From positions 44,726 to 108,725 of the forward strand of contig CAVYIP010000007.1 of assembly GCA_963768605.1 (NCBI GenBank): a stretch of 64,000 bases of DNA, in the 5' to 3' direction. Source of the DNA: an uncultured Actinomycetes bacterium. GTDB lineage: Bacteria; Actinomycetota; Acidimicrobiia; IMCC26256; JACDBD01. The position numbers and the translations under genes are program-made. Numbering within the stretch: position 1 is the first letter of the stretch; each line of letters starts with the position of its first letter. The notes beneath the pieces were generated by a model. The model was not told where the DNA came from and did no database searches. It worked only from the letters and a program-made list of their open reading frames with translations. Shown in pieces: positions 4,224-28,790 of the stretch.

Positions 4224-4241
4224 GCCGACGACGCCGTCGGC
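4224..4241. terminator. Candidate hairpin between convergent genes (VWA and macro-domain)
   Basis: GCCGACG-ACGC-CGTCGGC gives a 7-bp stem and 4-nt loop. There is no U tract. Confidence 0.3.
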
Positions 4242-4269
4242 GTCCGCTCACGGCATCCTGTCGAGTCCC

Positions 4270-4836
4270 CTACTTCCCGAGGGCAAGCTGATACGCGGCG
4301 AGCGTCCGGTCGTCGAAGCACACGAAGCGGATGAGGTCGACGTCGGTGTCGGCGTCCTGGCAGGTGCGGACGGCGATCGCGGTGGCGGCGTCGAGCGGGT
4401 AGCCGTAGATGCCGGTCGAGATGGCGGGGAAGGCGACGGATCGGGCGCCGAGCTCGTCGGCCACTGCCAGGGTGCGGCGGTAGGCGGAGGCGAGCTGATC
4501 GGGCTCGCCGGCGTCGCCGCCGCGCCAGACGGGGCCGACGGCGTGGATGATCCAGCGGGCGGGGAGGCGGAAGCCGGGGGTCGCCTTGGCGTCGCCGGTG
4601 GGGCAGCCGCCGACCTCGGCGCAGGCGGCATCGAGGTCGGGGCCGGCGGCGGCGAAGATCGCCCCGCACACGCCGCCGCCGCGGGTGAGGCCCGAATTGG
4701 CGGCGTTCACGATCGCGTCGACGGTTTCCCGGGTGATATCGCCCTGCACCGCCTCGAGCGCCGCCGCCACAAAAGCGCAGCCTAGAGCCGCCGATACCCG
4801 GCAGAAACGGGACGAATCGGACCGGCTCGGGCACAT
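4270..4836 (-). CDS. Macro domain protein (O-acetyl-ADP-ribose deacetylase-like)
   Basis: GDIT...[17 protein letters not shown]...IIHAVGPVW...[15 protein letters not shown] are canonical macro-domain motifs. The true start may be internal to the ORF. Confidence 0.85.
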
Positions 4837-11546: not shown

Positions 11547-12246
11547 CTAGTCGATCGACTCGTCGCGAACGCGGCGGGTGCTCGCCGGTCACCATGAAGC
11601 CGACGCGCTGCCCGATCGTGACGGCGTGGTCCGCGATCCGCTCGTAGTGCCGGCCCACCAGCGCGAGCTGCACGGCCAGGAGCACGTTGCCCTCGTCGTC
11701 GGCGCCCGGCCCGGATCCGGCGAGGATGTGCCGGAACAGGCTCTTGGTCAGGTCGTCCATCGTGTCGTCCATGTCGGCGAGCGCGAATGCCGCCGACGGG
11801 TCGGAGTCGGCGAACGCGTCGAGCGCGACTCGCGTCTGCGTGCCTGCCTGCTCGCCCATCCGCTGGATGATCCCCCGCAGCTTCGGGTCGAGGCTGTGCG
11901 GATAGAGGCGGCGAGTGGTCTTCGCGACGTTCACCATCAGGTCCGCCGACCGTTCGAGCTCGTGCACGATGCGCAACACGGAGACGACCGTCCGCAGGTC
12001 GGTCGCCATCGGCTGCTGGCGAGCGAGGAGCTGGTAGCAGCTGTCCTCGATCGAGTGGGTGAGGTCGTCGATGTCGTCGTCGTTCTCGATGACCTGCTCC
12101 GCGGCCGTGAGGTCGGCGTCGAGGAACGCCTGCGTGCCGGCGCCGATCGCCTCGGTCGTCAACGCGGCGAGCCGGATCACGTCGATCCGCAGCTCGTCGA
12201 GGGCGTCCTGGAAGCTCTTGCGGGCCTCGTTGGCGGTGTCGGTCAC
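11547..12246 (-). CDS. phoU: Phosphate signalling complex protein PhoU
   Basis: Two PhoU repeats (DDLTHSIEDSCYQLLARQQPMATDLR...ELERSADL; MDDLTKSLFRH...GRHYERIADHA). The listed ORF runs on to 11389 antisense to the neighbour. A +1-type break in the last ~10 codons would end it at TAG 11549-11547 (..RRVRDESID*), a normal PhoU length. Confidence 0.8.
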
Positions 12247-12305
12247 GGCGACATCATCCCATTCCGGCGCATGTGCCTCACTCGTCGACGCTCGACCTTC
12301 GGATC

Positions 12306-12327
12306 GTTCCGGCAGTGTTCACGATCT
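12306..12327. promoter_or_regulatory. PHO-box-like direct repeat pair 1 (GTTCCGGCAGT GTTCACGATCT)
   Basis: Two GTTC-headed units with exactly 11-bp spacing in the phoU/pstS divergent intergenic region. It is nearly identical to the pair at 12423-12444. Confidence 0.4.
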
Positions 12328-12422
12328 GGCCATTCCGACGCCATGATCGCGCCAGGATCGCGCGACGCGACGTCTGCACCGACAGCGAGGATTGCCCGAA
12401 TCCGCCGGACGTTCCCCCAACC

Positions 12423-12444
12423 GTTCCGGCACTGTTTACCGTTC
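12423..12444. promoter_or_regulatory. PHO-box-like direct repeat pair 2 (GTTCCGGCACT GTTTACCGTTC)
   Basis: Same architecture as pair 1, with a further GTTC unit at 12411. It lies ~80 bp upstream of the pstS ATG, which has an AGGAGG RBS near 12507. Confidence 0.4.
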
Positions 12445-12521
12445 GGCTACCTCGAAGCCACGGCCGCGCCAGCATCGCTCCGTAGCGTCCGCGCCGCGAC
12501 CTTCCAAGGAGGATCAACTCT

Positions 12522-13624
12522 ATGAAGCGCATCACTGGCTACCTGCGGTGGCTGGTACCCACGGCCTTGATCGTCGGCCTGGTTCCGTTGGGCGGAGCGA
12601 TCGCGAGTGCAGCTGATGCTCCTGCTCAAGGCGGCTCGGCGACGCTCAACGCGTCGGGTGCCACCTTCCCGCAGGCGTACTACGAAGAAGTGATCGGGGC
12701 CTTCAAGCAGAAGGACTCGAACGTCACCATCAACTACGCCGGCGGTGGCTCGGGCAAGGGCCGCCAGGACTTCGCCGACCAGGTCGTCGACTTCGCCGGC
12801 TCGGACGCGCCGTACAAGCCCGAGGACGCGCGCCGGCGTCAAGGGCGGCACGTTCTTCTACTTCCCGACGGTGGCGGCGCCCATCACGGTGTCGTACAAC
12901 CTCAAGGGCGTGAAGAAGCTGCAGCTCTCCGCCGACACGATCGCCAAGATCTTCTCGGGTGCGATCAAGACCTGGGACGACGCCGCGATCAAGGCGGAGA
13001 ACACGGGCGTGAAGCTGCCGTCCACCGCGATCACCGTGGTGCACCGGGCTGACAGCTCGGGGACGACGGAGAACTTCACGAAGTTCCTCACCGCGGCGGC
13101 ACCGACGTGCGTGGACGCTCGGCTCCGGCTCGACCGTGAGCTGGCCGGCCGACACGCAGGCGGGCCAGGGCAACCCGGGCGTCGGTCAGATCGTGAAGAG
13201 CACCGACGGCGCCATCGGCTACGTCGACTTCTCCGACGCCAAGGCGCTGAAGCTCCAGTTCGCGAAGATCAAGAACAAGGACGGCAAGTACGTGGCGCCG
13301 ACGCGTGAAGGCGACCACGGCGGCCGTCGACAAGGCGCAGGTCAAGGCCGACCTGACGTACGACCCGCTCAACGCGAGCGGCGCGAGTGCCTACCCGATC
13401 GCGGCGCCGACCTGGTTGCTCGTGTACCAGAACCAGAGCGACGCGGCGAAGGGCACGGCGATCAAGAGCTTCCTGAACTACATCTACGGGGACGGCCAGA
13501 AGCTGGCCCCGGAGGTGGACTACGCACCACTGCCCGAAGAGCCTGCTCGACAAGGCCAAGGCCCAGGTCAAGCAGGTCGGGGGCCGCGTCGAGCTCCACG
13601 GGCGCGAGCACGTCCACCACGTAG
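12522..13624 (+). pseudogene. pstS: Phosphate ABC transporter substrate-binding protein PstS; about 5 frame breaks
   Basis: PstS segments walk through frames 0>1>2>0>1>2: ATFPQAYY..NYAGGGSGKGRQDF; GGTFFYFPTVAAPITVSYN...HRADSSGTTENFT; SWPADTQAGQGNPGV..GAIGYVDFS; AYPIAAPTWLLVY. Breaks are near 12830, 13105, 13303, 13536 and 13580 (a G5 run). Confidence 0.9.
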
Positions 13625-13638
13625 CATCCGGCGAACAC

Positions 13639-13668
13639 GAGGGGCGGGCGATTCGTCGCCCGCCCCTC
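13639..13668 (+). terminator. Perfect 13-bp stem / TTCG-loop hairpin between pstS and pstC
   Basis: GAGGGGCGGGCGA-TTCG-TCGCCCGCCCCTC. The position matches the partial-terminator or mRNA-stabiliser hairpins known between pstS and pstC. Confidence 0.6.
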
Positions 13669-13690
13669 CTCGCCTTCCTGAAAGCTGGCG

Positions 13691-14672
13691 ATGGCGACCG
13701 ACGCTCCTGCCCTTCCCAAGAGCTTCACGAAGGGGACCCGACCGCCGGGGATCATCGCCGACCGGGGCTTCCGGATCCTCGCCCTGCTCGCGGCGCTGAT
13801 GGTCCTCGTGATCCTCGGCGCTGATCGCGCATCTCGACGACGCGCGAGGCGCTGCCGTGGTTCCGCGAAGAGGGCCTCGGCATCTTCACCGACAACTGGG
13901 ACCCGGCCAAGAACAGCTTCGGCGCGCTGGGCCTGATCTACGGCACGCTGCTGGTGTCGGCCATCGCAGTGCTCCTCTCGCTCCCGATCAGCATCGGCAT
14001 CGCGTTGTTCGTCACCGACGTCGCGCCGCAACGCCTGCGCCGGCCGATCGTGTACACGGTCGACCTCCTCGCCGCGATCCCGTCGGTCGTCTACGGGCTG
14101 TGGGCGCTCCTCGTCCTCGCCGCGCCGCTGGCGAACCTGTTCGAGACAGTGTCGGACGCGACCGCCGGCATCCCGGTCCTCAAAACGGTGTTCGGCGAAC
14201 CCCAGCGCGTCGGGCAAGAGCTTCATGACCGCCGGGATCATCGTCGCGATCATGATCACGCCGATCATCACCTCGATCACCCGTGAGGTGTTCGCGACCG
14301 TCCCGGCGTCGCAGAAGGAGGCCGCGCTCGCGCTCGGCGCCACCCGCTGGGAGATGATCCGGGGCGCGGTGTTCCCGCACAGCCGCAGCGGCATGGTCGC
14401 CGGCACGATGATCGGCCTCGGCCGGGCGATGGGCGAGACGATCGCGATCGCCCTGGTGATCGGATCGTCGCAGCGGGTGACGGCGAACATCCTCGGGCCC
14501 GGCGACACGCTGGCGAGCGTCATCGCCAACCAGTTCGGCGAGGCGAGCGGCACCCACCGCGCCGCGCTCATCGGGTGCGGCGTCGTGCTGTTCGTCATCA
14601 CGATCCTGATCAGCATGGCGGCGCGGGCGGTCGTCGGCCAGGACCGACCGACGGTCGGCGGGCGCCGCATGA
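13691..14672 (+). pseudogene. pstC: Phosphate ABC transporter permease PstC; about 4 frame breaks
   Basis: RILALLAALMVLVILG / REALPWFREEGLGIF..FGALGLIYGT..DLLAAIPSVVYGLW / SFMTAGIIVAIMITPIITSITREV..ALGATRWE lie in successive frames. Breaks are near 13820-13831 (two), 14215 and 14638. The inferred stop is the TGA of an ATGA overlap with pstA. Confidence 0.88.
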
Positions 14673-15575
14673 CCGCGCCGGCGGTGCCCCTCACGCAATC
14701 GACTCGCAAGGGCCGGCGCGAGCTCAAGAACGCCGTCGCGACCGGCCTGATCGTGGCCTCGTTCGTGATCGCGCTCATCCCGCTGACGCTCATCGTCATC
14801 TACGTCGTCCAGGCCGGGCGCGTCGTCGTTCAGCTGGAGCTTCCTGACCGAGGACCTTCCCTTCAGCAACCGGCGAGAGGGCGGCGGGATCTACCCCGCC
14901 ATCGTCGGGACCCTCGTGATCACCGGGACCGCGACGCGCGATGGCCGTACCGCTGGGGATCCTCGGCGGCATCTACCTGAACGAGTACGGCGGGCACGGG
15001 ATCTTCGCCCGGTTCGTCCGCTTCCTGGCCGAGGTCATGACCGGCGTGCCGTCGATCGTGATGGGCCTGTTCATCTACACGATCTGGGTCCTGCCCCGGA
15101 AGCAGGCGGGTCTCAGCGGGTTCGCCGGTGCGCTCGCGCTCGGTTGCCTGATGCTCCCGATCGTGATCCGGACCACCGAGGAGATCCTCAAGCTCGTCCC
15201 CGACGAGCTCCGCGAGGGGAGCTACGCGCTGGGGACCCGCAAGGCGCAGACGATCCGCACGGGTCGTGTTCCCGAACGCCGCCCCCGGGATCATCAGCGG
15301 CGCCCTGCTCGGCGTCGCCCGTGTGGCGGGCGAGACCGCGCCCCTGCTGTTCACGATCGGCATCGTGTCGACGGCGAACTTCAACGTCTTCGACGGGCCC
15401 AACACGGCGTTGCCGCCGCAGATCTACATCGAACGCCGGGACCTTCGGCGGCTTCCCCGCCGCACAGGACCGGGCGTGGGGCGCGGCCCTGGCGCTCATC
15501 CTGCTCGTCTTCCTGTTCACGCTGGTCGCCCGCATCGTCACGGCCATCTACACCCGCCGTTCGGCGGCGGTTTGA
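14669..15575 (+). pseudogene. pstA: Phosphate ABC transporter permease PstA; about 4 frame breaks
   Basis: Segments SWSFLTEDLPFSN..IYPAIVGTL / MAVPLGILGGIYLNEYG..EGSYALGTRK / VFPNAAPGIISGALLGVARVAGETAPLLFT / AWGAALALILLVF step +1 each time, near 14825, 14935, 15258 and 15428. Confidence 0.88.
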
Positions 15576-15590
15576 CCCTTGGAGCCGGAA

Positions 15591-16504
15591 ATGACCGACA
15601 CCGCGATCGCCGCCACTAAATTCGGCCCGGTGACCACGACTCGCGACGAATCCGTGGCCAAGGGTCCGGACGAGGCAGCTCCCCGGTGAGCCGTCTCCCG
15701 AGGAGAAGCCCGAGCGGGCGCGGCGAGATCGTCTTCCAGCTCTCGGACGTCGAGGTGAAGTACAGCGGCGTCACCGCCGTGCAGGACGTCAACGTCGACA
15801 TCGCCGCCAACGAGATCACCGCGTTCATCGGGCCGTCGGGCTGCGGCAAGACGACCGTGCTCCGCTCGCTGAACCGCATGCACGACATCACGCCCGGCGC
15901 CGAGGTGCTCGGGAAGGTCACGTACCACGGTCGAGGACCTCTACGGGTCCAAGGTCGACCCGGCCGAGGTGCGGCGGCGCATCGGCATGGTGTTCCAGAA
16001 GCCGAACCCGTTCCCGAAGTCCGTCTACGACAACGTCGCGTACGGGCCGCGCATCAACGGCACGAAGCGCAGCGAGGTCGAGGAGCGGGTGGAGAAGGCG
16101 CTGACCCAGGCCGCGCTCTGGGACGAGGTGCAACGGCAAGCTGCAGCACGAGCGCGCTGGCGCTCTCGGGTGGTCAGCAGCAGCGTCTGTGCATCGCCCG
16201 TTGCCTCGCCGTCGAGCCCGACGTGATCCTGATGGACGAGCCCTGCTCCGCCCTCGACCCGATCGCCACGGCGCGGATCGAAGACCTCATGGACGAGCTC
16301 AAGAACGAGTACACGATCGTGATCGTGACCCACAACATGCAGCAGGCGGCGCGCGTCTCGGATCGCACTGCGTTCTTCACCGCCGAGGTCGACGACGCCG
16401 GTCATCGCCGGGGTCGGCTGATCGAGTACGACGTGACCGAGACGATCTTCACGCACCCGTCCGACCCTCGCACCGAGGGGTACATCACCGGGAGGTTCGG
16501 CTGA
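15591..16504 (+). pseudogene. pstB: Phosphate ABC transporter ATP-binding protein PstB; 3-5 frame breaks
   Basis: Walker [40 protein letters not shown] and Walker B ILMDEPCSALD lie in different frames, with breaks near 15930, 16127 and 16149. ATG 15591 with a GGAG RBS, 15 nt after pstA, is the likely start if there are two more +1 steps near 15680 and 15715. Otherwise the start is GTG 15686. Confidence 0.88.
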
Positions 16505-17680
16505 TCGTCGCGATCGCCGTGACGGTCGTGATCGTCACGCTCGTCGGGGCAGTGGGGTTCCTCGCTTTCACGATCCGGTCACAGCGGCGCGAGCTCCGCC
16601 GCCTGGCGGAGGAGCTGGACGAGCCGCTCGACATGGAGCGCCGTGGGCCACGCGGCGACGTCGAGCGCGAGGCGCTCGCCGGTGCGGTGGCGGCGTTCGA
16701 GGACGGCGTGGTCGTCGTGGACGCCCGGGGCAACGAGGTCATGCGCAACGCCGCCGGCGAGCGCTTTCGCGGTGCCCGTCATGCGGACGCCCTCGTGGAG
16801 GACGCGATGCGCACGCTGCTCGCGCCGGCGCTGCGGGGCGAGCGCGCCGAGCGCGAGCTCCAGCTGTTCGGTCCACCGCGCGAGGTCCTCCTGGTCCGCA
16901 CGGGGCCTCTGTTGCGCCGCAACCGGGTGATCGGCGCGGTCGCGTTCGTCCGCGACGTCTCGGAGCTCCGACGGGTCGAGAGCGTGCGGCGGGACTTCGT
17001 CGCCAACGTGAGCCACGAGCTCAAGACGCCGATCGGCGCGTTGTCGCTGCTGGCGGAGACGATGGCGGCCGGGGACGACTCCCCGGTCAACAGCCAGCTC
17101 GCCGACCGGGTGCAGCGCGAAGCCAACCGGCTGGGGCGCATCGTCGACGATCTCCTCGATCTCAGCCTCATCGAGGCGCAGGAACGGCCGACCCGCGAGC
17201 CGGTCCCCGTGCACGTCGTGCTTGCACGAGGCGGCCGAGCGGGTGCGCGGCGCCGCCGACGCCGTCGGCATCCCCCTCAACGTCCCGCCGGTGGCGACCG
17301 ACCTGGTCGTGGCGGGTGACCGCTCGCAGCTGGTGAGCGCGGTCACGAACCTCCTCGACAACGCGATCAAGTACTCGGAGCCGGGCGAGCCCGTGGAGGT
17401 CGACGCCACCGTGGTCGACGGGAGCGTCTGCATCTCCGTGCGCGACCACGGCATCGGGATCCCCGCACGCGATCTCGAGCGGATCTTCGAACGCTTCTAC
17501 CGGGTCGACCGGGCGCGCAGCCGCGCGACGGGCGGCACCGGTCTCGGCCTCTCGATCGTGCGGCACGTCGCGCAGGCGCACGGCGGCGACGTGACGGTCG
17601 AGTCGACCGAAGGCGAGGGTTCCACGTTCCGTTTGCGCGTGCCGCTACCGTCGTCCAAGAAGCTCTCGGAGGCGTCCTGA
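16501..17680 (+). pseudogene. senX3: Sensor histidine kinase, SenX3-like; one frame break
   Basis: One TM, a PAS-like part, the H-box RRDFVANVSHELKTP, then after a break near 17220 the N/G boxes (NLLDNAIKYS, GGTGLGLSIV). The start is uncertain (GTG 16519 or upstream). It is directly followed by the regulator gene. Confidence 0.82.
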
Positions 17681-18402
17681 TGGCAGATGCGGCTCCGCTC
17701 ATCCTCGTGGTCGACGACGAGGAGTCGTACCGCGATGCACTCACGGTCGCATTGGAGCGCGAAGGCTTCCGCGTCGAGGTGGCCGCCGACGGCCAGGAGG
17801 CGATCGACCAGTTCGACGCGACCAACCCGTCGCTCGTGCTCCTCGACGTGATGTTGCCTCGCATCTCGGGTGTGGACGTGTGCCGCGACCTGCGGTCCCG
17901 TTCGCGTGTGCCGATCATCATGGTCACGGCCCGCAGCAACGAGATCGACGCCGTCGTGGGCCTCGAGGTCGGCGCCGACGACTACGTGTCGAAGCCGTTC
18001 CGGCTCCGGGAGCTCATCGCCCGCGTACGCGCCGCGTTGCGCCGCAGCGCCGACGAGGAGCCGGCCGGCATCACCAACCAGGAGGTGCTCGAGATCGGCG
18101 ACGTGCGTCTCGACGCCGGCCGCCACGAGGTCTTCGTCCGCGGCGACCCGGTGCCGCTGCCGCTGAAGGAGTTCGAGCTCCTCGAGCTGCTGCTCGCCAA
18201 CGCCGGGCGCGTCCTGACCCGCGACGTCCTCATCGACCGGATCTGGGGGCCGAACTACTTCGGCGACACCAAGACGCTCGACGTCCACGTGAAGCGCCTG
18301 CGGGCCAAGGTCGAGGAGGACCCCTCGAACCCCACCCGGGTCGTCACGATCCGGGGCGTCGGCTACCGCTACGAGAAGCCCACCCGCGTCGCCACCGGCT
18401 AA
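17680..18402 (+). CDS. regX3: OmpR-family response regulator, RegX3-like
   Basis: Intact. Receiver domain (LVVDDEES...LLDVMLP..SG) plus winged helix (LPLKEFELLELL...TLDVHVKRLR.K...I.T.RGVGY). Confidence 0.85.
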   Translation: MADAAPLILVVDDEESYRDALTVALEREGFRVEVAADGQEAIDQFDATNPSLVLLDVMLPRISGVDVCRDLRSRSRVPIIMVTARSNEIDAVVGLEVGADDYVSKPFRLRELIARVRAALRRSADEEPAGITNQEVLEIGDVRLDAGRHEVFVRGDPVPLPLKEFELLELLLANAGRVLTRDVLIDRIWGPNYFGDTKTLDVHVKRLRAKVEEDPSNPTRVVTIRGVGYRYEKPTRVATG

Positions 18403-18935
18403 CCGGCGGCCACTGCCTCCACGATCGGGCGCCAGTGCGAGAGAGGCGGGACGTCCCGGCCCGGCACCTTGGCGTCGTCGTCGGCGCGGCGGAGCGTGAG
18501 GAGGTCGTCGAGCCACGGCTCGGCGTCGAGGCGGGCTCGCTCGGCGTCGTCGAGCCGGCCGCCTTGGACCTCGAGGGTATGGATGCTCCCGGGGCTCAGG
18601 CGGGACGTGTAGTCGCCGTCGACCGTCACGAGATAGCGCTTGGCCTCGTCGTGGTGGCCGACGAGCCACGCGACCCGTTCGCCCAGCACGCCCGCCACCG
18701 CCGCCGCGCCGGCGCGGGCGTGCGTGCGGGGACGGCCCGGCCACAGCACGGTGCCCACGTCGTGCACGAGCCCGGCGACCTGGAGCTCGTGGTCGTCCGG
18801 CGCGGCCCCGGCGAGGAGCGCCGCGCACTGCAGCCCGTGCGCGAGCAGATCGACGTCCTCGGCGTCGGTCTCGCCGGCGCCGGACTCGAGCACGCCGAGG
18901 AGCGAGTCGACGCCCGTGATCGCCGCTTCCGTCAC
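18399..18935 (-). CDS. HD domain phosphohydrolase-like protein
   Basis: GTG start at 18935 overlaps the upstream stop. It has an H...HD motif (LLAHGLQCA...AGLVHDVG) and a later GHHDEAKRYL. Confidence 0.65.
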   Translation of the reverse strand: MTEAAITGVDSLLGVLESGAGETDAEDVDLLAHGLQCAALLAGAAPDDHELQVAGLVHDVGTVLWPGRPRTHARAGAAAVAGVLGERVAWLVGHHDEAKRYLVTVDGDYTSRLSPGSIHTLEVQGGRLDDAERARLDAEPWLDDLLTLRRADDDAKVPGRDVPPLSHWRPIVEAVAAG

Positions 18936-19899
18936 GTTGCGGGCAGGTAGCGGCCGCGCACGACTTGCCCCTCCTCGACGTCGAGGACCCACGTCGAGCC
19001 TTTGGGGAACCGCAGCTCGCTCGGCGCCGCGTCGTCGCCGGCGTCGAGCCGGACATGCTGACCGGCGAAGTGGTGCAGCAGGTCGCCGATCACGTCGCCG
19101 TGGGAGCACAGGACGGTCGGCTTGTCGGTCACCTTCTCGAGCAGGCGGAGAGCCTCGCTCAAGGGCGCGCCCTCGGACAGCGCGTCCGCGTCCTCGACCG
19201 GCAGGCCGAGGCGCTCGGCGAGGGGGGCGACGGTCTCGCGGCACCGGACGTACGGGCTGCTCACGATGCGGCCCATCGGCTCCTCGCGCAGCAGCTTCGC
19301 CAGCGCCACCGCCTGGCGGCGTCCGGCCTTGGACAGCGGCCGTTCCTCGTCGGGCCCGTCCCACGCGCTCCTGCTGCCAGCCTTGGCGTGGCGGACGAGA
19401 TAGAGCTTCAGGGAAGGGCCTCCGCGTCGCCGATCAGCTTTCGGTCGTGCTCGTGGTCCAAGAGCTTGCCCGCATCAGCGGCCGAGCACCAGCGCACCTC
19501 GTCGATCTCGTCGTTGGGCCGGAACTTGGGCGACTTGCCGTCGGCCGGCTCCATGAGCCAGTAGCGGACCTGCTTCAGCCGGCCCTTGCGATCCCGGTAC
19601 CTGGTCGACTCGAGCTCGGGGCCGAGCATGGCGCGCACGCCGGTCTCCTCTTCGACCTCGCGCAGCGCCGCCTCCTCGTCGGTCTCCCCCGGGTCGACCT
19701 TGCCCTTCGGGACACTCCAGTCGTCGTAGCGGGGACGGTGCACGAGCGCGTACTGCGTCCGGCCGTTCTTCGACCGGCGGCGGACGACGCCACCACCCGC
19801 CCGCACCAGCGGCTCGGCCTCGGCCTGATCCGGATGCGACCGGCGCCGCCACAACTTCAGAGCCACTGCCGGAGCTTCTTCTTGCTCGCCGCCTGCCAC
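18932..19899 (-). pseudogene. Nudix hydrolase fused to a histidine phosphatase domain (MutT1-like architecture); frame break at the domain junction
   Basis: Nudix box GKVDPGETDEEAALREVEEETG lies in ORF 19408-19899. The downstream frame encodes LYLVRHAKAGSR (RHG motif)...CSHGDVIGDL, with no ATG/GTG/TTG start of its own. The junction is at 19405-19411. An alternative Nudix start is GTG 19864. Confidence 0.7.
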
Positions 19900-21349
19900 A
19901 CCTTGCCCCAGGCGGCGCGGGTGCTCTCGATCTCGACGCGCTCGAGGGTCGCCAGCTGACCGGCCACGAACACCTCACGGCCGATCGTCGACGACGAGAC
20001 GTCGCGCAGCCACTGCTCGGCGACGACGGCGTCCTGGTGATCGCCGAGAACGTCCTGGACATCGGCGATCGCCTTGGCGAACGCGCGGGCCCGCTTGCCG
20101 ACCGCCGGCGCCACCGCCTCCGCCGCGTAGCGGCATCGCTTCGCCTTGATGCGTACGTGGTGGAGCGCCTCGTCGGTCGGGTCCTCGGGGAGCTCCTCGA
20201 CGGCGGTGAGCAGCTTCTCCCACGGCTTGCTCACGAGCGGCGGCAGGACGTCGGCGGCGCGGTCATCGGCGGCCGACGGGATGAGCGCCGGCTCGCGTGC
20301 GGCATCGACCAGGCGGTCGAGGAGCTCGGCGTATCCGCGTGCTCCCGAGCGCCTCGCGCAGCTCGGCTCGCGCCGTGTCCCACCGCTGGAGCAGCCGCTG
20401 GATGATCTTCCTGGCGGTTGCCTGATCGCCGGTCGGGAGGCGTTCGGCGTGGGCCCGCAGCCGGTCGAGGAGCACCTCGGTGTCGCGGACGGCGCCGAGG
20501 TCGTGGCCGACGCTCTTCAGGTCCCGTCGCAGCGATTGCGTCCACTCCTGATCGAGGAGGGAGTGGAACGTGCGCAGGTCGGAGCGCAGGCGGCGGGTCG
20601 CCACGCGGGCCTGATGCACGTCTTCGGGGTCGTCGCCGAGGCGGACGCCCGGGTCGTGGGCGACGAGCCGGGCCACCGACGCCGCCAGCGCGTTGCGGAT
20701 CACGTCGCCCGCCGACGGCGACGGTCCGAGCCGGCGCACCGTGGTGACGTCGGGCGGCTCCATCGCCCGCCAGCCGAGCGCGCGCACGATCTTGGGGCTC
20801 GAGTCGGGCGGTCCGGCGCCGGCGGCACGGAGGCGGGAGAAGAGTGTGTCGGCGAGGCCCGCGGGGGCGGCGTCGTCGACCTCGACCTCGAGCTCCCGGA
20901 AGCGGGCGGCGACCCGTCCACTCGCCAGCACCGTCACTTCGTCGTCGAGCACCTCGCCGAGTGTCTTGTCCGACGAGTCACGGAGCTCGACACGCCGACG
21001 GCGGGTCCGCAGACGCGCCACCGGCGCGACGCGGGCCGTGCGCACGAGCGCTCGCACCAGGTCGACGGCGGCCGGCGGCGGCTGGCCCGCCTCGCCTTCG
21101 AAGCGGTGCTCGTCGTGCCGGAGCTGCGGCCCGGCGACGGTCTCGCGGCCGAGTGTCACGACCCAGCCGTCGTCGCCGCGGTACAGCAGCGTCACGCCGG
21201 CCCGGGCCAGGCGCAGGTCGGGCGTGTCGTAGTAGGTCAGCTCGATGACGGTCGGCTCGGCCTCGACGGAGACGATCCCGTCCGCGACGTCGTTGAGCTG
21301 CGGGGAGATGAAACCCGGGGGGCGACGAGAGGGACTCGTGCGAGGTCAC
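19857..21349 (-). pseudogene. CYTH plus CHAD domain protein (polyphosphate-associated); 2 frame breaks
   Basis: GTG 21349 overlaps the ppk stop (GTGA). The frame is lost in a C6/G4 run near 21310. The CYTH part is [20 protein letters not shown]. The CHAD helices are VHQARVATRRLRSDLR and, after a break near 20337, HHVRIKAKRCRYAAE. Confidence 0.8.
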
Positions 21350-23489
21350 GCCCGCGGCTCGACGGCACGTGCGCGCTGGATGGCCAGCTCCTGGAGCTGG
21401 AGGTGCGTGTTGACACCGGCGGTGCGCGGCACCCGGCGCCACGTCCCGTCGTTCCCGAGCTCCCACGCCAGCGTGTCGTCGGCCAGGTTGATGGTGAGGA
21501 TCTCGTCGAGCCGGTCGCGCATCGCCGGCGCCGTCACCGGGACGAGCGCCTCGACCCGCCGGTCGAGGTTGCGCGGCATGAGGTCGGCCGACCCGATGAC
21601 GTACTCGGCGGTGTGCGGATCGGGACCGAACCGGTAGATGCGTGAGTGCTCGAGGAATCGGCCGACGATCGAGCGCACCCGGATCGTCTCCGACAGGCCC
21701 GGCACACCCGCGCGCAGGCAGCAGATCCCGCGCACGATGAGGTCGATCGGCGTGCCCGCCTGTGACGCCGAGTACAAGCGCGTCGATCATCTCGGGGTCG
21801 ACGAGGCTGTTCATCTTCATCGTGATGCGCCCCTCCGGCCCCAGCTCGGCTTGGCGCTCGATCCGCTTCAGGAGCTCGGGCCGGATCGTCACCGGCGCGA
21901 CGAGCAGCTTGCGGTAGCGACCCTGGCGGCTGTACCCGGTGAGGTAGTTGAACAGCTCGGTGACGTCGGCGCCGAGATCGGGATCGGCGGACAGCAACCC
22001 GAGGTCCTCGTAGGTCATGGCGGTCTTCGGGTTGTAGTTGCCCGTGCCGACGTGGCAGTAGCGACGGATCCCGTCCGGCTCCTGGCGGACGATGAGCAGG
22101 ATCTTGGCGTGCGTCTTGAGGCCGACCAGCCCGTACACGACGTGGACGCCCGCCTCTTCGAACAGTTGCGCCCGTTCGATGTTCGCCTGCTCGTCGAAGC
22201 GCGCCTTGAGCTCGACGAGCGCGACCACCTGCTTGTCCTGCTCGGCGGCGTGGATGAGCGACCGCACGAGCTGGCTGTCGGGGCCGGCGGTGCGGTACAG
22301 CGTCTGCTTGATCGCGAGGACGTCCGGGTCGCGTGACGCCTGCTCGACGAGCGCCTCGATGGAGGTCGCGAACGAGTCGTACGGGTGGTGCACGAGCACG
22401 TCGCCCTGCTCGAGGACGCGGAACATGTCATGCGGTCCGTCGGCGCGCGTGAGCGCCGGCTGCGTCTGCGGCGTCCACGGCTCGTCCTTCAGCTCGGGCC
22501 GATCGAGGTCGTACAGCCCGAACAGCCCGCTGAGGCCGAGGGGACCGTCGACGACGTAGACGTCGGAGTCGCCCAGCTCGAGCTCGCGACAGAGCAACTC
22601 GAGCACCTCGTCGCTCATCTTCCCGTCGACCTCGAGCCGCACGACGCGCCCGAACTTGGTGCGCCGGCGCAGGATGAGCTCCATCGCCTCGAGGAGGTCC
22701 TCGGCGTCGTCGGTCGAGCTCGAAGTCGGCGTCGCGGGTGACTCGGAACGGGTGGTGGGCGACCGTCTCCATGCCCGGGAACAGGCTGTCGAGGTGCGCC
22801 GCGATCACCTGCTCGAGCGGAACGAACCGCTCGCCGTCGGGCAGCACGAGGAAGCGGGGCAGCAGCGGCGGCACCTTCACCCGGGCGAAGCGTTCCTCGC
22901 GCGGTCGTCGGGTCGCGCACGACGACCGCGAGGTTCAGCGACAGGTTCGAGATGTACGGGAACGGGTGGGCCGGGTCGACCGCCAGCGGCGTGAGCACAG
23001 GGAAGACCCGCTCGTCGAAGACGCCGCGGAGGTGCTCACGGTCCGTCTCGGACAAGGCCGTCCCAGTCGGAGAACCCGATGCCGACCTCGTCGAGCGCCG
23101 GCGCGACCTCGCGGTTGAAGACGGCGGCCTGACGCTCCATCATCGGCTCCACCCGGGCACGGATCGCGCGCAGCTGCTCCCCGGCGTCGAGCCCATCGGG
23201 TGACGTGGCGCGGATCCCGGCGTCGAGCTGCTCACGCAGCCCGGACACCCGGACCTGGAAGAACTCGTCGAGGTTCTGGCTGACGATGGCGAGGAACTTC
23301 ACCCGCTCGAGGAGCGGGACGGCCTTGTCCGCGGCGACGCGCGAGCACGCGCGCGAAGTAGTCGAGCGCGGAGAGCTCGCGGTTGAGGAACCGGGATTCG
23401 GGCTGGAGTTGGGTCGGGGGATCGAGCGCAGGTCCGAGATCAGATGCGCTGCCCTCGACCGACACGTCGAGGCCGGCCATCGCCCTCAT
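21346..23489 (-). pseudogene. ppk1: Polyphosphate kinase 1; 5 frame breaks
   Basis: PPK1 segments appear in six consecutive ORFs: FLNRELSALDYF; KFLAIVSQNLDEFFQVRV; [20 protein letters not shown]; RFVPLEQVI; HHPYDSF...[12 protein letters not shown]...CHVGTGNYN; LIVRGICCL...[23 protein letters not shown]. Breaks are near 23335, 23050, 22895, 22710 and 21780, all in the same direction. Confidence 0.92.
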
Positions 23490-23797: not shown

Positions 23798-25258
23798 ATG
23801 GCCACGGCACCGCCTCCTCGTCGCCCTACGCGTCCCGGCCCGACCGACTCCCGTTTCGCCGAGCCGACACCGTTCGCACGACTTGCGATCACCCACGCCG
23901 CGAGCATCTGCGGCGACGTCTGCCTGACCGTCTCGCTCGCCGGGTCTCTGTTCTTCTCGGTGTCGCCCGGTCAGTCGCGCGAGAAGGTGCTGCTGTACCT
24001 GATCATCACGATGGCGCCCTTCGCCGTCATCGCACCCTTGCTGAGCCCGCTGCTCGACCGGGTCCGCGGTGGCAGGCGGCTCATGATCTTCATCACGTGC
24101 GCGGTCCGCGGCGTGCTCTGCCTCTTCATCGCGCGTTATGTGAACGCGAGCGGCGCCGAGGCCCTGCTGATCTACCCGCTCGCGTTCGGGTTGCTCGTGG
24201 CGCAGAAGACGTACTCGATCGCCAGGAGCGCGCTCGTGCCTTCGCTCGTCAACGGCGAGCGCGAGCTCGTGGGCGCCAACTCGCGTCTGGCGATCATCAG
24301 CGTCGTCGGGGGCCTCGTCGGCGGCCTGCCGGCCGTCGGCATCTACCGGTTCTTCGGCGCCGAAGGCTCCCTGATCCTCGCCGCGTTCGTGTACGCGGTC
24401 GCCTCGATGCTCTCGTGGCGGATCCCACGGGTCGAACAGGAGCAGGCCGGGCCGGATACGGAGCTCGAGAAGGAAGAGCTCCACGCGCCGAGCATCATCC
24501 TGGCCGGCAGCGCGATGGGCCTGTTGCGGGGCGCGGTCGGGTTCCTCACGTTCTTCCTCGCCTTCGGGCTCCGCGACAACGACGAGGCGGCGTGGGTGTT
24601 CGGGGTCGTGCTCGTGGTCAGCGGCATCGGCGGCTTCCTGGGCAACCTCGTCGCGCCCCAGCTCCGGAAGATCACGCGCGAAGAGGTCATATTGGCCGGC
24701 TCGCTCGTCCTGCCCGCGGTCGGATGCCTGTTCGCGGCGCGCTCGTCATCGATCACGATGACGACATTCGGCGCGCTGCTCATCGCCGCCGGCGCCGCGG
24801 CCGGACGTGTCGCGTTCGACAGCCTCCTCCAGCGCGACGCGCCCGACGCCATCCGGGGGCGCAGCTTCGCCCGGTTCGAGACTCGTTTCCAGATCACGTG
24901 GGTGGCGGGAGCGCTCATCCCGGTTGCGATCCCGCCCGTGTACCAAGACCTCCGCATCGGTCTGTTCGTGCTCGCCATCGGGCTCGGCTTCGCGGGGCTT
25001 TCGTACATCGGCGGCATGCGCGCCGCTCGCGAAGCGGTCGCGCGTCGTCGCCGTCGCGTGGAGCGCACCCGGGAGACAGTCGGGCGCGGCTTCCGAGCCG
25101 GTCTCGCGCGGCTGCGTCGCTCGGGACGTCGCCCAAGAGACGGCGGCGAGACCGCCAAGGGCAGGGGAGAAATCGAGGCCGGGTCCGAACGAGGTCAAGT
25201 AGACAAGAGCCCGTGGCATCCGACTTCCTGCTTCGACCGGTCACACGCGACGAGCTGA
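23798..25258 (+). CDS. Multi-pass integral membrane transporter (MFS-like)
   Basis: Many hydrophobic helices separated by short basic loops (RVRGGRR, ..LRKITREE..). The tail is rich in Arg. ATG 23798 was chosen after a low-complexity N-terminus. The family call is by architecture only. Confidence 0.55.
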   Translation: MATAPPPRRPTRPGPTDSRFAEPTPFARLAITHAASICGDVCLTVSLAGSLFFSVSPGQSREKVLLYLIITMAPFAVIAPLLSPLLDRVRGGRRLMIFITCAVRGVLCLFIARYVNASGAEALLIYPLAFGLLVAQKTYSIARSALVPSLVNGERELVGANSRLAIISVVGGLVGGLPAVGIYRFFGAEGSLILAAFVYAVASMLSWRIPRVEQEQAGPDTELEKEELHAPSIILAGSAMGLLRGAVGFLTFFLAFGLRDNDEAAWVFGVVLVVSGIGGFLGNLVAPQLRKITREEVILAGSLVLPAVGCLFAARSSSITMTTFGALLIAAGAAAGRVAFDSLLQRDAPDAIRGRSFARFETRFQITWVAGALIPVAIPPVYQDLRIGLFVLAIGLGFAGLSYIGGMRAAREAVARRRRRVERTRETVGRGFRAGLARLRRSGRRPRDGGETAKGRGEIEAGSERGQVDKSPWHPTSCFDRSHATS

Positions 25259-26442
25259 CCGAGTTCACAATGACCCCCCTCATCGCGTTCGGTGAGCGCA
25301 TGGATCGCGCGCGCCTCGAGCTCGACTGGACGAGTCTCGAGCTCGACCGCACGCTCGCCGCCTTCGACGGCGACGAGATCATCGGGACGGGCCGGCTCTT
25401 CTCCTTCGAGCTGACCATGCCGGGCGGCAGGCTGTTGCCGGCGGCCGCGGTGAGCTGGATCGCCGTCCTGCCCACCCACCGGCGGCGAGGGATCCTCACC
25501 GCGATCAAGACCCAGCAGCTCGAAGACGCCGCCGAGCGCGGCGAGGCGCTGGCAATGCTGTACGCGTCCGAAGCCGGCATCTACCGCCGGTTCGGATACG
25601 GCATCTCGACGAGCTCGATGAGCGTGAGCGTCGAGCGCCGCCACTCGGCGTTCTTGCATCCGGTGCCGGAAGGACGCGTCCGCCTCGTCGAGGAGGACGC
25701 GGCGCGCAAGCTGTTCCCCGAGATCTTCGACCGCGCCCGTCGCGTCCAGCCCGGCGCGGTGCAACGCGTCGACGCCTGGTGGCCCGACCAGTTCTTCTGG
25801 CCCGATCCCGACGACAAGGGCACCGCGTTCTACTGCGTGTACGAATCCCCCGAGGGCGTGCTCGACGGGTACGCCGCCTACCGGTTCGAGCCACGTTGGG
25901 GAAACGGTCCCGAGGGCACACTGCACGTCGGCGATCTCGTCTCCGTCACCCCGGCTGCTCGGGCGGTGCTGTGGCGCTACCTGCTCGACGTGGACCTCGT
26001 CGCGACGATCACGGCGTGGGTCGTTCCTCTCGACGAGCCGCTGCGGTGGATGTTGCGCGAGCCGCGCCGCATGGCGGTCACGCGCGTGGGCGAGAGCCTC
26101 TGGGTGCGCGTGCTCGATGCGCCCGCCGCGCTGACGGCGCGGACGTACGCGGCTCGCGGGCAGGTGGTGTTCGAGGTCGTCGACGCGCTCCGTCCCGACG
26201 GCGACGCGGCCGGTCGGTTCGTTCTCGACGGCGGGCCCGACGGCGCCGAGGCTCGGCGCACGACCGACGAGCCCGACCTCGTGCTCGACGTCGCCGAGCT
26301 GGGCGGGATCCTGCTCGGCGGCGTGCGCGCGTCCGCACTGGCCCGGGCCGGGCTCGTCGACGAGCGCACCCCCGGAGCGCTGGCGATCGCCGATGCCATG
26401 TTCGCGGTCGAGCCATTGCCGTTCTCGATGACCGATTTTTGA
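25213..26442 (+). CDS. eis: Eis-family GNAT N-acetyltransferase (GNAT-GNAT-SCP2 architecture)
   Basis: AVLPTHRRRGILTAI...ASEAGIYRRFGYG and the C-terminal ...PFSMTDF closely parallel mycobacterial Eis (VAPTHRRRGLL...ASEGGIYGRFGYG...TAFEF). The start is GTG at 25213. Confidence 0.8.
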   Translation: MASDFLLRPVTRDELTEFTMTPLIAFGERMDRARLELDWTSLELDRTLAAFDGDEIIGTGRLFSFELTMPGGRLLPAAAVSWIAVLPTHRRRGILTAIKTQQLEDAAERGEALAMLYASEAGIYRRFGYGISTSSMSVSVERRHSAFLHPVPEGRVRLVEEDAARKLFPEIFDRARRVQPGAVQRVDAWWPDQFFWPDPDDKGTAFYCVYESPEGVLDGYAAYRFEPRWGNGPEGTLHVGDLVSVTPAARAVLWRYLLDVDLVATITAWVVPLDEPLRWMLREPRRMAVTRVGESLWVRVLDAPAALTARTYAARGQVVFEVVDALRPDGDAAGRFVLDGGPDGAEARRTTDEPDLVLDVAELGGILLGGVRASALARAGLVDERTPGALAIADAMFAVEPLPFSMTDF

Positions 26443-26544
26443 GGTCTGGCATACGCCCAGCCGACACATCCCGCCGAGGTGTTCAGCGGCGCGTCAGCCG
26501 CAATCAACCAGCCATTCATCCGCAGTCGGTACCGTCGAATTGCG

Positions 26545-28050
26545 ATGAGCAAGACGACCGGTTCTACCGACTGGATGCGTCGCCTCGCTGACCACTACGC
26601 CCGGTTTCGGCAGGGCTACCCCGACGATCGGCTCCTGATCGTCTTCGACATCGACGGCACGATCCTCGACCTCCGCTACATGGTCCGGTACGTGCTGCTC
26701 GATTACGACCGCGCCCACGGCAGCGACCTGTTCCACGGTCTGAGTGTCGAGGACATCGACGTGCACGAGAACCGTGTCGAGGAGTTCCTCGAGGGTCGCG
26801 CGCTCGCAGCCGAGACACGTGAGCACGTCCTGGCGTGGTACCTCGAGCGGCGGTGGCAGCCCGACTCGGTGCTGGCCGCCCACCGCCCCTACCGGGGCGT
26901 GCTCGAGGTCATCCGCTGGTTCCAGCTGCAGCCCGCGACGTTCGTCGGGCTCAACACCGGCCGCCCCGAGCAGTTGCGCGACGAGACGCTGCGGTCGTTG
27001 AACGCGCTCGGTCGGGAATACCGGGTCGAGTTCCGTGCCGATCTCCTCGCGATGAACGAGTCGGGCGAAGAAGGCGGTGTCATCGAGAGCAAGGTCGCAG
27101 GCTTGCGCACCTTCGCGGACGCCGGGTTCCGGACGTTCGCCGTCGTCGACAACGAGCCGGCCGTGATCGCCGCGCTGGCCGAGGCGGACGAATCGGGGGA
27201 GATCCTCTTCCTGCAGGCTCAGACGTTCTCCGAATCGCGGCGGGTGCCCACCCCGCGTACCGTGCGCGGACGGTCGTACGACCTCACCGCGCTCGTCACC
27301 GAGGAAGACCTCCCGCACCACGTGCAGCTCGTGTGGCACGGCGTCAACGACGAAGCGAACCTGCGCCAGTTCCTCGGCTCCCAGGTCCATTGGGCCGAGT
27401 GCGACGTGCGGCGCGACCCCCTGGGGCGGCTCGTGCTCCGCCACGACTCGTTCGAGCGGACCCCGTGGTCACGCACCGAGAAAGGGCTCGAGCTCGGCGA
27501 CCTGTTGGCGCGGCTGCGCGAGCAGGGCCGCGGCGTCAAGCTCGACCTGAAGGAGGGCGACGCGATCCTCGACGACGTGCTCGCCGCCGTCGACGCCCAC
27601 GGCTTCGACGACGCCGACCTGTGGTTCAACGCCCGGATCGAGGCGCTGGGTGAAGACGGGGTCGGCCGGCTCGTGGCGGCGCACCCCGACGCCATCGTGC
27701 AGTGCCCGGTCGACTTCCTCGCACCGCTGGTGCTCGCCGCCCCCGAGCGGGCCTGGGACACCATCAAGCTGCTGATGAGCTGGGGCGTCAGCCGCTTCTC
27801 CGTGAGCTGGGCGGGGGAGCACGCCCGCGCGCTGCTCGAGTCCCTCGAGGACTTCGGCTGCGAGGTCAACCTCTACGCCGTGCCCGACCTCGAGGCTTTC
27901 CTCCGCGCCGCGCTGATGCTCCCGACCTCGATCACGACGGACTTCAACTTCCCGGCGTGGCACTACTTCGGTCGGGGCGCAGGCGAGCAGCACCAGTACC
28001 ACCGCTACAAGGTCGACGCCCTCGTCCCCCCGACGACGGACGTGGCCTAG
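26545..28050 (+). CDS. Fusion protein: N-terminal HAD-like phosphatase, C-terminal PLC-like/GDPD-like (DUF2181/menorin-type) phosphodiesterase domain
   Basis: HAD motif I is VFDIDGTILD. Motif II-like is GLNTGRP. The Asp motif is AVVDNEP. The C-terminal half has WHGVNDEANL...HWAECDV..DP.GRLVLRHD, as in PLC-like TIM-barrel phosphodiesterases. The ORF is intact. An alternative start is at 26479. Confidence 0.5.
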   Translation: MSKTTGSTDWMRRLADHYARFRQGYPDDRLLIVFDIDGTILDLRYMVRYVLLDYDRAHGSDLFHGLSVEDIDVHENRVEEFLEGRALAAETREHVLAWYLERRWQPDSVLAAHRPYRGVLEVIRWFQLQPATFVGLNTGRPEQLRDETLRSLNALGREYRVEFRADLLAMNESGEEGGVIESKVAGLRTFADAGFRTFAVVDNEPAVIAALAEADESGEILFLQAQTFSESRRVPTPRTVRGRSYDLTALVTEEDLPHHVQLVWHGVNDEANLRQFLGSQVHWAECDVRRDPLGRLVLRHDSFERTPWSRTEKGLELGDLLARLREQGRGVKLDLKEGDAILDDVLAAVDAHGFDDADLWFNARIEALGEDGVGRLVAAHPDAIVQCPVDFLAPLVLAAPERAWDTIKLLMSWGVSRFSVSWAGEHARALLESLEDFGCEVNLYAVPDLEAFLRAALMLPTSITTDFNFPAWHYFGRGAGEQHQYHRYKVDALVPPTTDVA

Positions 28051-28790
28051 CCCCAGCCGGAGCTCGCCCCCTGCACCATGCCGAACGGGCCGGTGGGCCA
28101 GCGGAAGCAGTCCATCATCAGCTGGTCGACGTCCTCGGCGGAGGCGATGCCCTCGTTCACGACCTTCTGCGCCTCCGCGACCATCGCGAAGTAGACCCGG
28201 TTCGTCACAAACCCCCACGCCATCGGCGTGTCCCGGATCACGACGGCGTTCTTCCCGCACTTCGTCGCCACGTCGCTGACCGCGGCGACGGTCTCGTCGC
28301 TGGTCTCGCGGGTCGAGACGATCTCGGCCAGGCGCATCACCGGCGCCGGCGACGCCCAGTGCCAGCCGATCACGCGGTCGGCGCGGTCGGTCGCCGCCGC
28401 CAGGCCGGCGATCGCGAAGCCGGACGTGTTCGACGCGAGGATCGTCTCGTCCGGTGCAGCCCGATCGAGATCGCGGAAGACGCGTACCTTCAGCTCGAGG
28501 CGCTCGGGCACCGCCTCGACCACGAGATCGGTGGCAGCCGCCTCCTCGAACGAGCTCGTGAACGTGAGTCGCGCCAGAGCGGCGTCGGCCTGCTCGCGCG
28601 TCACCTTGCCGCGTTCGACGCCCCGCTCAATCCCGTACCGACCCGTCGTGACGTGCTCCCGACCCTTGTCGAGCGCGCCCGGGTCGACGTCGTAACAGAC
28701 CGTGTCGTACCCGGCCGTCGCCGTGACCTGGGCGATCCCGCTGCCCATCACGCCCGCTCCGAGCACGCCGATCTTCTTCACCGCGCTCAC
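28047..28790 (-). CDS. hbd: 3-hydroxyacyl-CoA (3-hydroxybutyryl-CoA) dehydrogenase
   Basis: GVLGAGVMGSGIAQV Rossmann motif, ..EAVPERLELK..., SNTSG, and MRLAEIV. The GTG start overlaps the upstream stop (GTGA). The C-terminus looks somewhat short. Confidence 0.8.
   Translation of the reverse strand: MSAVKKIGVLGAGVMGSGIAQVTATAGYDTVCYDVDPGALDKGREHVTTGRYGIERGVERGKVTREQADAALARLTFTSSFEEAAATDLVVEAVPERLELKVRVFRDLDRAAPDETILASNTSGFAIAGLAAATDRADRVIGWHWASPAPVMRLAEIVSTRETSDETVAAVSDVATKCGKNAVVIRDTPMAWGFVTNRVYFAMVAEAQKVVNEGIASAEDVDQLMMDCFRWPTGPFGMVQGASSGWG

Follow-up and report, generated by a model that had tools for sequence, protein, structure and literature searches.

Clustered +1 insertions in a phosphate-homeostasis gene block of an uncultured actinobacterium probably represent strain alleles written in tandem

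The block at positions 11547-23489 of the window, the 64,000-nucleotide stretch of contig CAVYIP010000007.1 analyzed here, is an intact-type, ordinary Pho-regulon and polyphosphate neighborhood in a host with a G+C content of 70%. NCBIfam and Pfam gene content confirms that, as an earlier note on this DNA had claimed, phosphate-homeostasis genes lie back to back in about 12 kb. Its description of sensing, uptake and polyphosphate metabolism as one physical unit is also correct, the unit being conserved in relatives and representing a known actinobacterial arrangement (PMC8003754). For the NCBIfam equivalogs, scoring used unbroken orthologues from the same species (89-100% identity to the window) in place of the broken window copies. 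PhoU, PstS, PstC, PstA, PstB and Ppk1 all score above the curated cut-offs. The components of a PstSCAB-PhoU uptake system comprise phoU on the minus strand (11547-12246; TIGR02135, 182 bits, cut-off 130) and, on the plus strand, pstS (12522-13624; TIGR00975, 312 bits, cut-off 205), pstC (13691-14672; TIGR02138, 293 bits, cut-off 196), pstA (14669-15575; TIGR00974, 286 bits, cut-off 193) and pstB (15591-16504; TIGR00972, 377 bits, cut-off 343). These scores are those of the orthologues on the conspecific contig L082, to which the window copies align over their full length by tblastn.

Downstream of pstB, the plus strand encodes a PhoR/SenX3-like sensor histidine kinase (16519-17680) and a RegX3/PhoB-type OmpR-family response regulator (17680-18402) whose product is 100% identical to those of the conspecific contigs L081 and L082. 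No phosphate-specific equivalog scores above its cut-off for either protein: the best kinase models are PnpS (281 bits, cut-off 400) and PhoR (270, cut-off 334), while the regulator reaches 224 bits for PhoB (cut-off 296) and has MtrA as its top match (260 bits, cut-off 300). The two genes are putatively assigned as senX3-regX3 based on the ranking of kinase matches and the location beside pstSCAB, at scores below the equivalog cut-offs.

The remaining genes are found on the minus strand. The HD-domain protein (18399-18935; Pfam HD E = 4.8e-6), taken for a phosphohydrolase in the earlier note, does carry an HD domain but is closest, below threshold, to PhnZ-type HD oxygenases (TIGR03276, 116 bits, cut-off 214) and not to a generic phosphohydrolase. 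It is followed by a SixA-like histidine phosphatase (18932-19414) and a Nudix hydrolase (19408-19866; Pfam NUDIX E = 1e-21), which had been read as one gene and are really two with a 4 nt overlap. The His_Phos_1 match of the phosphatase starts at residue 3 and its RHA motif sits upstream of the first canonical start, so that translation likely begins at a CTG overlapping the Nudix stop codon (CTGA); in relatives the codon at this position is GTG, ATG or TTG. A single frameshifted MutT1-like fusion of the two genes was considered and rejected, as two frames are present in short-read relatives too, where a canonical start codon replaces the CTG of this clade. Further along lie a CYTH-CHAD (phosin-like) protein gene (19857-21349; Pfam CHAD E = 8.7e-60, CYTH E = 5.8e-9) and ppk1 (21346-23489; TIGR03705, 787 bits, cut-off 466, for the L081 orthologue). 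The ppk1, CYTH-CHAD and Nudix genes are thereby adjacent, all on the minus strand and near pstSCAB, as in the Streptomyces-type ppk-CHAD-Nudix arrangement. Both regX3 and the HD gene are unbroken, as previously stated, and so are the histidine phosphatase and Nudix genes.

The other genes of the block are broken in the window sequence. Through comparison with up to 17 related contigs, we recounted the breaks and identified 27 coding and two intergenic (13655 and 15576) window-private frameshifting indels between 11547 and 23489, 18 of them in pstSCAB. The whole window contains approximately 50-57 breaks, about 25 of which fall in the roughly 50 kb beyond the block. These numbers agree with the earlier estimates of about 25 of some 50 breaks for the block and about 18 for pstSCAB. 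A strict count, accepting only events with at least two comparators all showing the same non-zero change modulo 3, yields 25 events inside and 18 outside the block over 55,967 covered bases. Clustering beyond uniform random error, which the earlier note had asserted, survives the recount (binomial p = 1.7e-7). Three further events are located at 28.4-34 kb, with a few more under lenient criteria. The stretches 2121-4136 and 23798-28790, reported to be free of breaks, are indeed clean except for an indel at 25162/25163 which the sister species also has.

Every break in the block is a +1 insertion and the majority are not in homopolymers. phoU carries one near its 3' end (11568; 700 nt in the window, 699 nt in the orthologue), with residues 1-226 of 232 in a single frame. 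Five are found in pstS (12830, 13107, 13302, 13536, 13586; 1103 vs 1098 nt; frame path 3>1>2>3>1), four in pstC (13816, 13829, 14196, 14638; 982 vs 978 nt), four in pstA (about 14811-14836, 14936, 15259, 15429; 907 vs 903 nt) and five in pstB (15680, 15722, 15933, 16132, 16145; 914 vs 909 nt). The pstB open reading frame stays open by chance despite its insertions, with a frame-3 island at 15894-16130 visible in both tblastn and the GC3 frame plot. The kinase gene switches from frame 1 to frame 2 at 17220, the CYTH-CHAD gene has insertions at 20338 and 21301, and ppk1 has five (21779, 22716, 22902, 23061, 23340; 2144 vs 2139 nt), its tblastn alignment consisting of six HSPs in alternating frames. 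tblastn frame hops, also seen in pstC and the CYTH-CHAD gene, agree with the excess lengths over orthologues (PhoU +1, PstS +5, PstC +4, PstA +4, PstB +5, SenX3 +1, CYTH-CHAD +2, Ppk1 +5), while the Nudix gene aligns in a single frame.

When the extra bases are set aside, all genes are full length and contain no stop codon. In PstS, PstC, PstA, PstB and SenX3 all codons align without stop or gap. Values of dN/dS for window genes lie between 0.03 and 0.35, the range of intact-vs-intact comparisons, and differences are found chiefly at third codon positions. The signs expected of pseudogenes, namely dN/dS near 1, stops and deletions accompanying frameshifts, were not observed. These data bear on genuine inactivation of the Pho system, in which the strain would have lost high-affinity phosphate uptake and polyphosphate synthesis via many true frameshifts. 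Such a loss could be read from the breaks truly present in the sequence of the linked pstSCAB, senX3, phoU, CHAD and ppk1 genes, with regX3, the HD gene, the histidine phosphatase and the Nudix gene spared. It would however require 27 independent +1 insertions without a nonsense codon, a deletion or relaxed constraint. In addition, all breaks are private to the window: pstSCAB frames are intact in short-read orthologues, with unbroken pst genes in 26 of 26 short-read contigs of the clade (20 JGI contigs and six MAGs). We therefore reject inactivation, one of the causes offered in the earlier note, as very improbable; the cluster of breaks is almost certainly no real biological feature.

Other Nanopore MAGs of the clade are broken at different places and possess their own private +1 insertions, and this occurrence of the same kind of error in unrelated genes is a further argument against inactivation. 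In MFD05176.bin.2.14, the stretch matching window positions 30.7-33.9 kb contains 13 private +1 insertions, whereas short-read MAGs have none in the same stretch. The private indels of a third Nanopore MAG of the clade are likewise mostly +1. The closest relatives of the window are Microflora Danica contigs, the assemblies of that project having been built by metaFlye from R10.4.1 Nanopore data and polished once with Medaka (PMC12313526).

The identity of the inserted bases is informative. Of 28 insertions, 17 add a base identical to the alternative allele of L081, L082 or a further comparator, L001, at an adjacent position; local random insertion gives 2.8 ± 1.6 such cases and never more than 9 in 5000 runs. 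Using 17 comparators for the segment from phoU to senX3, the inserted base matches the alternative allele of an adjacent population SNP in 17 of 20 cases (local random insertion 4.1 ± 1.8, maximum 11 in 3000 runs). Doublets of this kind also account for 12 of the 13 insertions of MFD05176.bin.2.14 (null 1.9). As inserted bases correspond to neighboring alternative alleles, the consensus appears to hold both alleles in tandem, a pattern far above chance that no mutational process behind a real inactivation predicts. No single public contig carrying all second alleles was found among the comparators; the second alleles are common population variants. When the pst consensus of the window was examined as a possible fine-scale chimera of L082-like and L001-like sequence, most L001-like sites proved to be simply private changes of L082. 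About one third of the insertions have no doublet explanation from the sampled alleles (e.g. 11568, 16145, 21301, 21779 and 22902). Some of these are one-base homopolymer extensions, indicating that a second, ordinary error mode contributes.

Ordinary long-read noise could in principle also account for the breaks as a whole, if coverage dipped locally or polishing was incomplete, leaving random or homopolymer indels with no mixing of strains. Nanopore-only consensus sequences come close to finished quality at about 40-fold coverage (PMC9262707), and a minority of events are indeed one-base homopolymer extensions (e.g. 11568, 14638, 16132, 7066 and 41982). Most sites are nevertheless located outside homopolymers, and between 11541 and 28408 the window has 26 private single-base insertions against only 2 private single-base deletion columns (the corresponding insertion counts are 4 for L082 and 1 for L081). 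Doublets exceed every local-null run, and insertion density tracks within-species SNPs and not sequence context. Noise of this type is thus an unlikely sole cause. Methylation-linked basecalling errors at a restriction-modification motif enriched in the block are less likely still and can practically be set aside. Several sites first seemed to lie near GATC or TCGA, but GATC is present within 8 bp of 4 sites with 4.0 expected, and of the motifs tested (GATC, CCGG, TCGA and others) only CGCG is enriched (11 vs 5.8 expected), an enrichment we discount because C/G doublets themselves create CGCG.

Insertions coincide with strain-level variation. A hypervariable segment among conspecific strains extends from pstS to senX3 (12000-17500) and contains 20 insertions. 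Within this segment 26-94 sites per 500 bp distinguish L081 from L082, compared with 4-15 in most flanking bins, and dS between these two conspecific contigs is 0.23-0.49 in pstS-senX3 and 0.01-0.11 in other genes. This makes pstS-senX3 the most strain-variable segment, with a SNP density 5-10 times that of the flanks, while parts of ppk1 are moderately raised. Insertion counts in 500 bp bins rise with the number of within-species SNPs (rho = 0.78, p = 1e-7 for L082; rho = 0.74 for L081), in contrast to divergence from the sister species, for which no correlation is seen in these bins (rho = 0.04). At 34-64 kb the comparators are 5-8% divergent throughout and insertion density is nonetheless low, indicating that the distance to public relatives reflects diversity within the sample only indirectly.

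Doublets could also arise if two similar pst loci of one genome had been merged into one consensus. Several pst copies are present in some actinobacteria, and a pile-up of merged paralogues would give the same doublets. A search of the species-representative genomes of the clade, however, found one pstA locus per related MAG (matches of at least 55% identity) and no second high-identity pstA, at odds with the duplicated pst locus proposed earlier. Errors of this type also affect ppk1, the CHAD gene and other genes of the window, the second alleles recur as common variants of the population among single-copy orthologues from many samples, and a 4 kb operon is normally spanned by long reads. Collapsed paralogues are hence about as improbable as a true inactivation, and strain haplotypes are favored as the merged entities. 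Among the three causes put forward in the earlier note, the artifact side is the one favored here, in the form of strain-haplotype collapse, which is more specific than a coverage or polishing gap; collapse of paralogues is not.

Overall, the breaks are private, exclusively +1, enriched in allele doublets and linked to SNP density, and they lie in genes compatible with purifying selection. The explanation that best fits these observations, to which we assign a probability of roughly 0.9, is that the block is real and ordinary and that its breaks are consensus errors of a long-read metagenome assembly in which both strain variants were written side by side. Reads of two or more co-occurring strains would have been assembled into a single contig. 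Wherever the strains differ by a SNP, the consensus step may have placed the two alleles, X and Y, in neighboring columns with half the support each and retained both. The consensus would then read XY although any real genome has only one of the two bases, resulting in exactly one extra base and a shifted frame. The number of doublet errors would scale with the local strain-level SNP density, and breaks would cluster in pstS-senX3 and parts of ppk1 because strain-SNP density is higher there than in the flanks. For the window itself, we infer from the sequence comparisons which sequencing platform was used, that its sample contained mixed strains and which consensus step wrote the doublets.

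Taken at face value, the window would describe a soil actinobacterium without phosphate sensing, high-affinity uptake or polyphosphate synthesis, a false metabolic inference. The practical value of the analysis lies in the error signature, a +1 insertion that sets the two alleles of a strain SNP side by side. This signature inflates pseudogene counts precisely where population diversity is highest and can be recognized and flagged without reads through comparison with relatives. The underlying biology is modest: a conserved and for the most part known Pho/polyphosphate neighborhood, together with a hot spot of within-species allelic divergence in pstS-senX3. There is about an even chance that pstSCAB-senX3 functions as an exchangeable cassette within this Acidimicrobiia-like clade of soil bacteria, given conspecific strains whose pst alleles, under purifying selection, diverge as much as those of another species (dS 0.3-0.5) between flanks that are approximately 98-99% identical. 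If so, the doublets would be a read-free footprint of two pst alleles co-existing in one soil sample and would point to between-species recombination or to alternative phosphate-uptake alleles kept over the long term, possibly driven, for example, by phage or niche pressure on PstS.

A full-text literature search found no paper describing the exact doublet artifact. The closest known case is that of indels in Nanopore-only MAGs (Sereika et al., 2022, PMC9262707; PMC12313526). As there, breaks are confined to a single assembly, do not occur in short-read assemblies of the clade and lead to split gene calls, and the Microflora Danica pipeline (PMC12313526) is the source of the window's closest relatives. 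The error in the literature is however the homopolymer indel, while the dominant error in the window is a non-homopolymer +1 allele doublet, and errors that are strain-SNP doublets consequently cluster in strain-variable and not in homopolymer-rich segments. Pseudogene clusters of bacteria undergoing reductive genome decay similarly contain many frameshifts in functionally linked genes. In contrast to these, the window exhibits no relaxed selection, stops, deletion bias or sharing of breaks with relatives, and its inserted bases copy population alleles. With respect to gene content, Streptomyces possesses a ppk-pptA(CHAD)-Nudix operon beside pstSCAB under PhoR/PhoP control, and histidine phosphatases are among the common neighbors of ppk (PMC8003754). 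In the window, ppk1, the CHAD protein gene and the Nudix hydrolase gene are likewise co-oriented near pstSCAB. The window differs from the Streptomyces system in the additional N-terminal CYTH domain of its CHAD protein, in the SixA-like phosphatase, PhnZ-like HD protein and senX3-regX3 genes situated between the ppk run and pstSCAB, and in the divergent orientation of phoU and pstS.

The frame-break cluster in the phosphate block (window 11547-23489) is present in the sequence, yet we consider it to be a consensus artefact with a probability of about 90%. A GC3 frame plot shows frequent frame hops at 12.4-17.6 kb. Tracing by tblastn, with intact conspecific proteins as queries, followed PstS through frames 3>1>2>3>1 and PstC through frames 2>1>2 and found both PstA and PstB broken, the latter with a frame-3 island in an otherwise continuous ORF, which remains open by chance. 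SenX3 contains one hop, CYTH-CHAD two, Ppk1 five and PhoU one close to the gene end; RegX3, the HD protein, the SixA-like phosphatase and Nudix each occupy a single frame. Excess length relative to orthologues is +1 base in PhoU and SenX3, +2 in CYTH-CHAD, +4 in PstC and PstA, and +5 in PstS, PstB and Ppk1. The block thus holds 27 coding and 2 intergenic breaks, with 18 in pstSCAB. Under a strict rule requiring at least two comparators, all with an identical non-zero change modulo 3, 25 events fall inside the block vs 18 outside (55,967 covered bases of the window). The stretch at 28.4-34 kb adds 3 events and a lenient rule a few more, and the whole-window total is ~50-57. The breaks are clustered in the block (binomial p = 1.7e-7), so that this recount bears out the break numbers and clustering reported in an earlier note.

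The RegX3-like protein shares 98% identity with its counterpart in a Nanopore MAG from Microflora Danica (MFD), which bears the label 'uncultured Actinomycetes bacterium', and farther neighbors carry the label Acidimicrobiia. This MAG (L001) represents a sister species because its DNA is only ~90% identical to the window. Exact-protein look-ups yielded two conspecific ENA contigs (L081 and L082) with 98-99% identity to the window in the flanks, and short JGI contigs as further conspecific matches. Window 1-11 kb and 33-54 kb were compared with additional contigs, some of them from short-read assemblies made with SPAdes or MEGAHIT, and 28-34 kb and 50-64 kb through genome-collection scans.

Once the extra bases are ignored, all codons of PstS, PstC, PstA, PstB and SenX3 align without stop or gap, their differences lie mainly at third positions, and dN/dS of the window genes is 0.03-0.35, equal to that of intact-vs-intact pairs. 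Each pst gene forms one unbroken frame in 20/20 JGI short-read contigs and 6/6 short-read MAGs. The open frames, low dN/dS and intact short-read assemblies led us to reject a pseudogene reading of pst-senX3, and genuine inactivation of the Pho system, proposed as one option in the earlier note, fails on the same constraint and intactness in short-read relatives. A second pst copy, another option, is disfavored as a search of related genomes turned up no further pstA locus of high identity.

Compared with L081 and L082, nearly all window-specific indels are single-base insertions, most of them outside homopolymers. Between 11.5 and 28.4 kb, the window carries 26 private single-base insertions vs 2 private single-base deletion columns; L082 and L081 carry 4 and 1 private insertions, respectively. 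On inspection, the inserted base usually equals the alternative allele of a SNP at the neighboring position. At 13302 the window reads C+G, with G in L082 and C in L081 and L001, and similar doublets are seen at 13829 (G+C), 15933 (C+G) and 23061 (G+T). Doublets account for 17 of 28 insertions, vs 2.8 ± 1.6 (maximum 9 in 5000 runs) for random insertions placed at most 150 columns from the real sites. With 14 short-read JGI contigs added, the proportion in phoU-senX3 is 17/20 (null 4.1 ± 1.8). C/G makes up most of the doublets, as expected of third-position SNPs in a high-G+C genome (~70% in the window), and this predominance explains a slight CGCG excess. Methylation-type motifs, including GATC, are not enriched near the insertion sites.

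Within pstS-senX3, L081 and L082 show 26-94 differing sites per 500 bp, compared with 4-15 in most flanking bins; here the two contigs lie as far apart as either does from the sister species. Their dS is 0.23-0.49 in PstS to SenX3 and 0.01-0.11 in other genes, with dN/dS of 0.14-0.24. Window 12000-17500 (pstS-senX3) represents a within-species hot spot of allelic divergence with persisting purifying selection, and its sequence pattern points either to recombination with other lineages or to alleles that have persisted for a long time. Window insertions per 500 bp follow within-species SNP density (rho 0.78 and 0.74) and are uncorrelated with between-species divergence (rho 0.04). The consensus likely wrote the two alleles of strain-level SNPs in tandem, and tandem writing would be commonest where strains differ most, leading to clustering in pstS-senX3. 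The artefact option of the earlier note is retained in this more specific form.

The clade's Nanopore MAGs carry breaks elsewhere, each at private positions. In the stretch matching window 30.7-33.9 kb, one of them (L347, MFD05176.bin.2.14) possesses 13 private +1 insertions, 12 of which are doublets (null 1.9), clustered in genes that have no link to phosphate. No private +1 insertions occur there in short-read MAGs. Assemblies of this kind thus seem to make the error systematically. MFD contigs are generated from R10.4.1 Nanopore reads using metaFlye and one Medaka round (PMC12313526). For the window, we infer the platform, the mixing of strains in the sample and the software step that wrote the doublets.

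Window 39500-39900 and 43040-43090 vary in length among all comparators, often by multiples of three, and contain CCGGA(A/G)C-like repeats, located in relatives' DivIVA-domain gene annotation and UPF0182. Dense indels relative to two conspecific contigs (L091 and L092) are found at window 4140-4310, at or after the 3' end of a Macro-domain gene, with only 1 indel relative to a third (L093). The pattern seems to mark a short stretch of true variation rather than a cluster of errors.

The block itself is a genuine, mostly known Pho and polyphosphate neighborhood. PhoU, PstS, PstC, PstA, PstB and Ppk1 exceed NCBIfam equivalog cut-offs, and Pfam matches comprise CHAD+CYTH, NUDIX, His_Phos_1 and HD, confirming the gene list first proposed except that a single 'Nudix/histidine-phosphatase' is two separate genes. 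The kinase has PnpS and PhoR as top-ranking families and the regulator belongs to the OmpR family; neither reaches an equivalog cut-off. In the SixA-like histidine phosphatase, the catalytic RHA motif sits 5' of the first canonical start. The apparent start is a CTG overlapping the Nudix stop as CTGA (window 19408-19414, minus strand); gene callers place it 34 codons downstream and lose the motif. The start codon is CTG in this clade and GTG, ATG or TTG in more distant relatives, and the CTG is real because short-read contigs of the clade carry it too. The HD protein (window 18399-18935), previously labelled a phosphohydrolase, instead has PhnZ-type phosphonate-degrading HD oxygenases as its best family (TIGR03276, 116 bits, under cut-off), which hints at possible organophosphonate use and not simple phosphohydrolysis.

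At window junction 11546/11547, L081 (2876-3805) carries an IS481-family transposase (rve, HTH) between a 91-aa gene and phoU, an insertion absent from the window and L082. L001 (10721-11444) contains an insertion of ~720 bp between regX3 and the HD gene (window 18400-18403) holding a 204-aa ORF, which may resemble RibD_C/dihydrofolate-reductase-like proteins. The entire block is syntenic in relatives. An arrangement of ppk-CHAD-Nudix adjoining pstSCAB is already known from Streptomyces (PMC8003754), and the window likewise has it beside pstSCAB.
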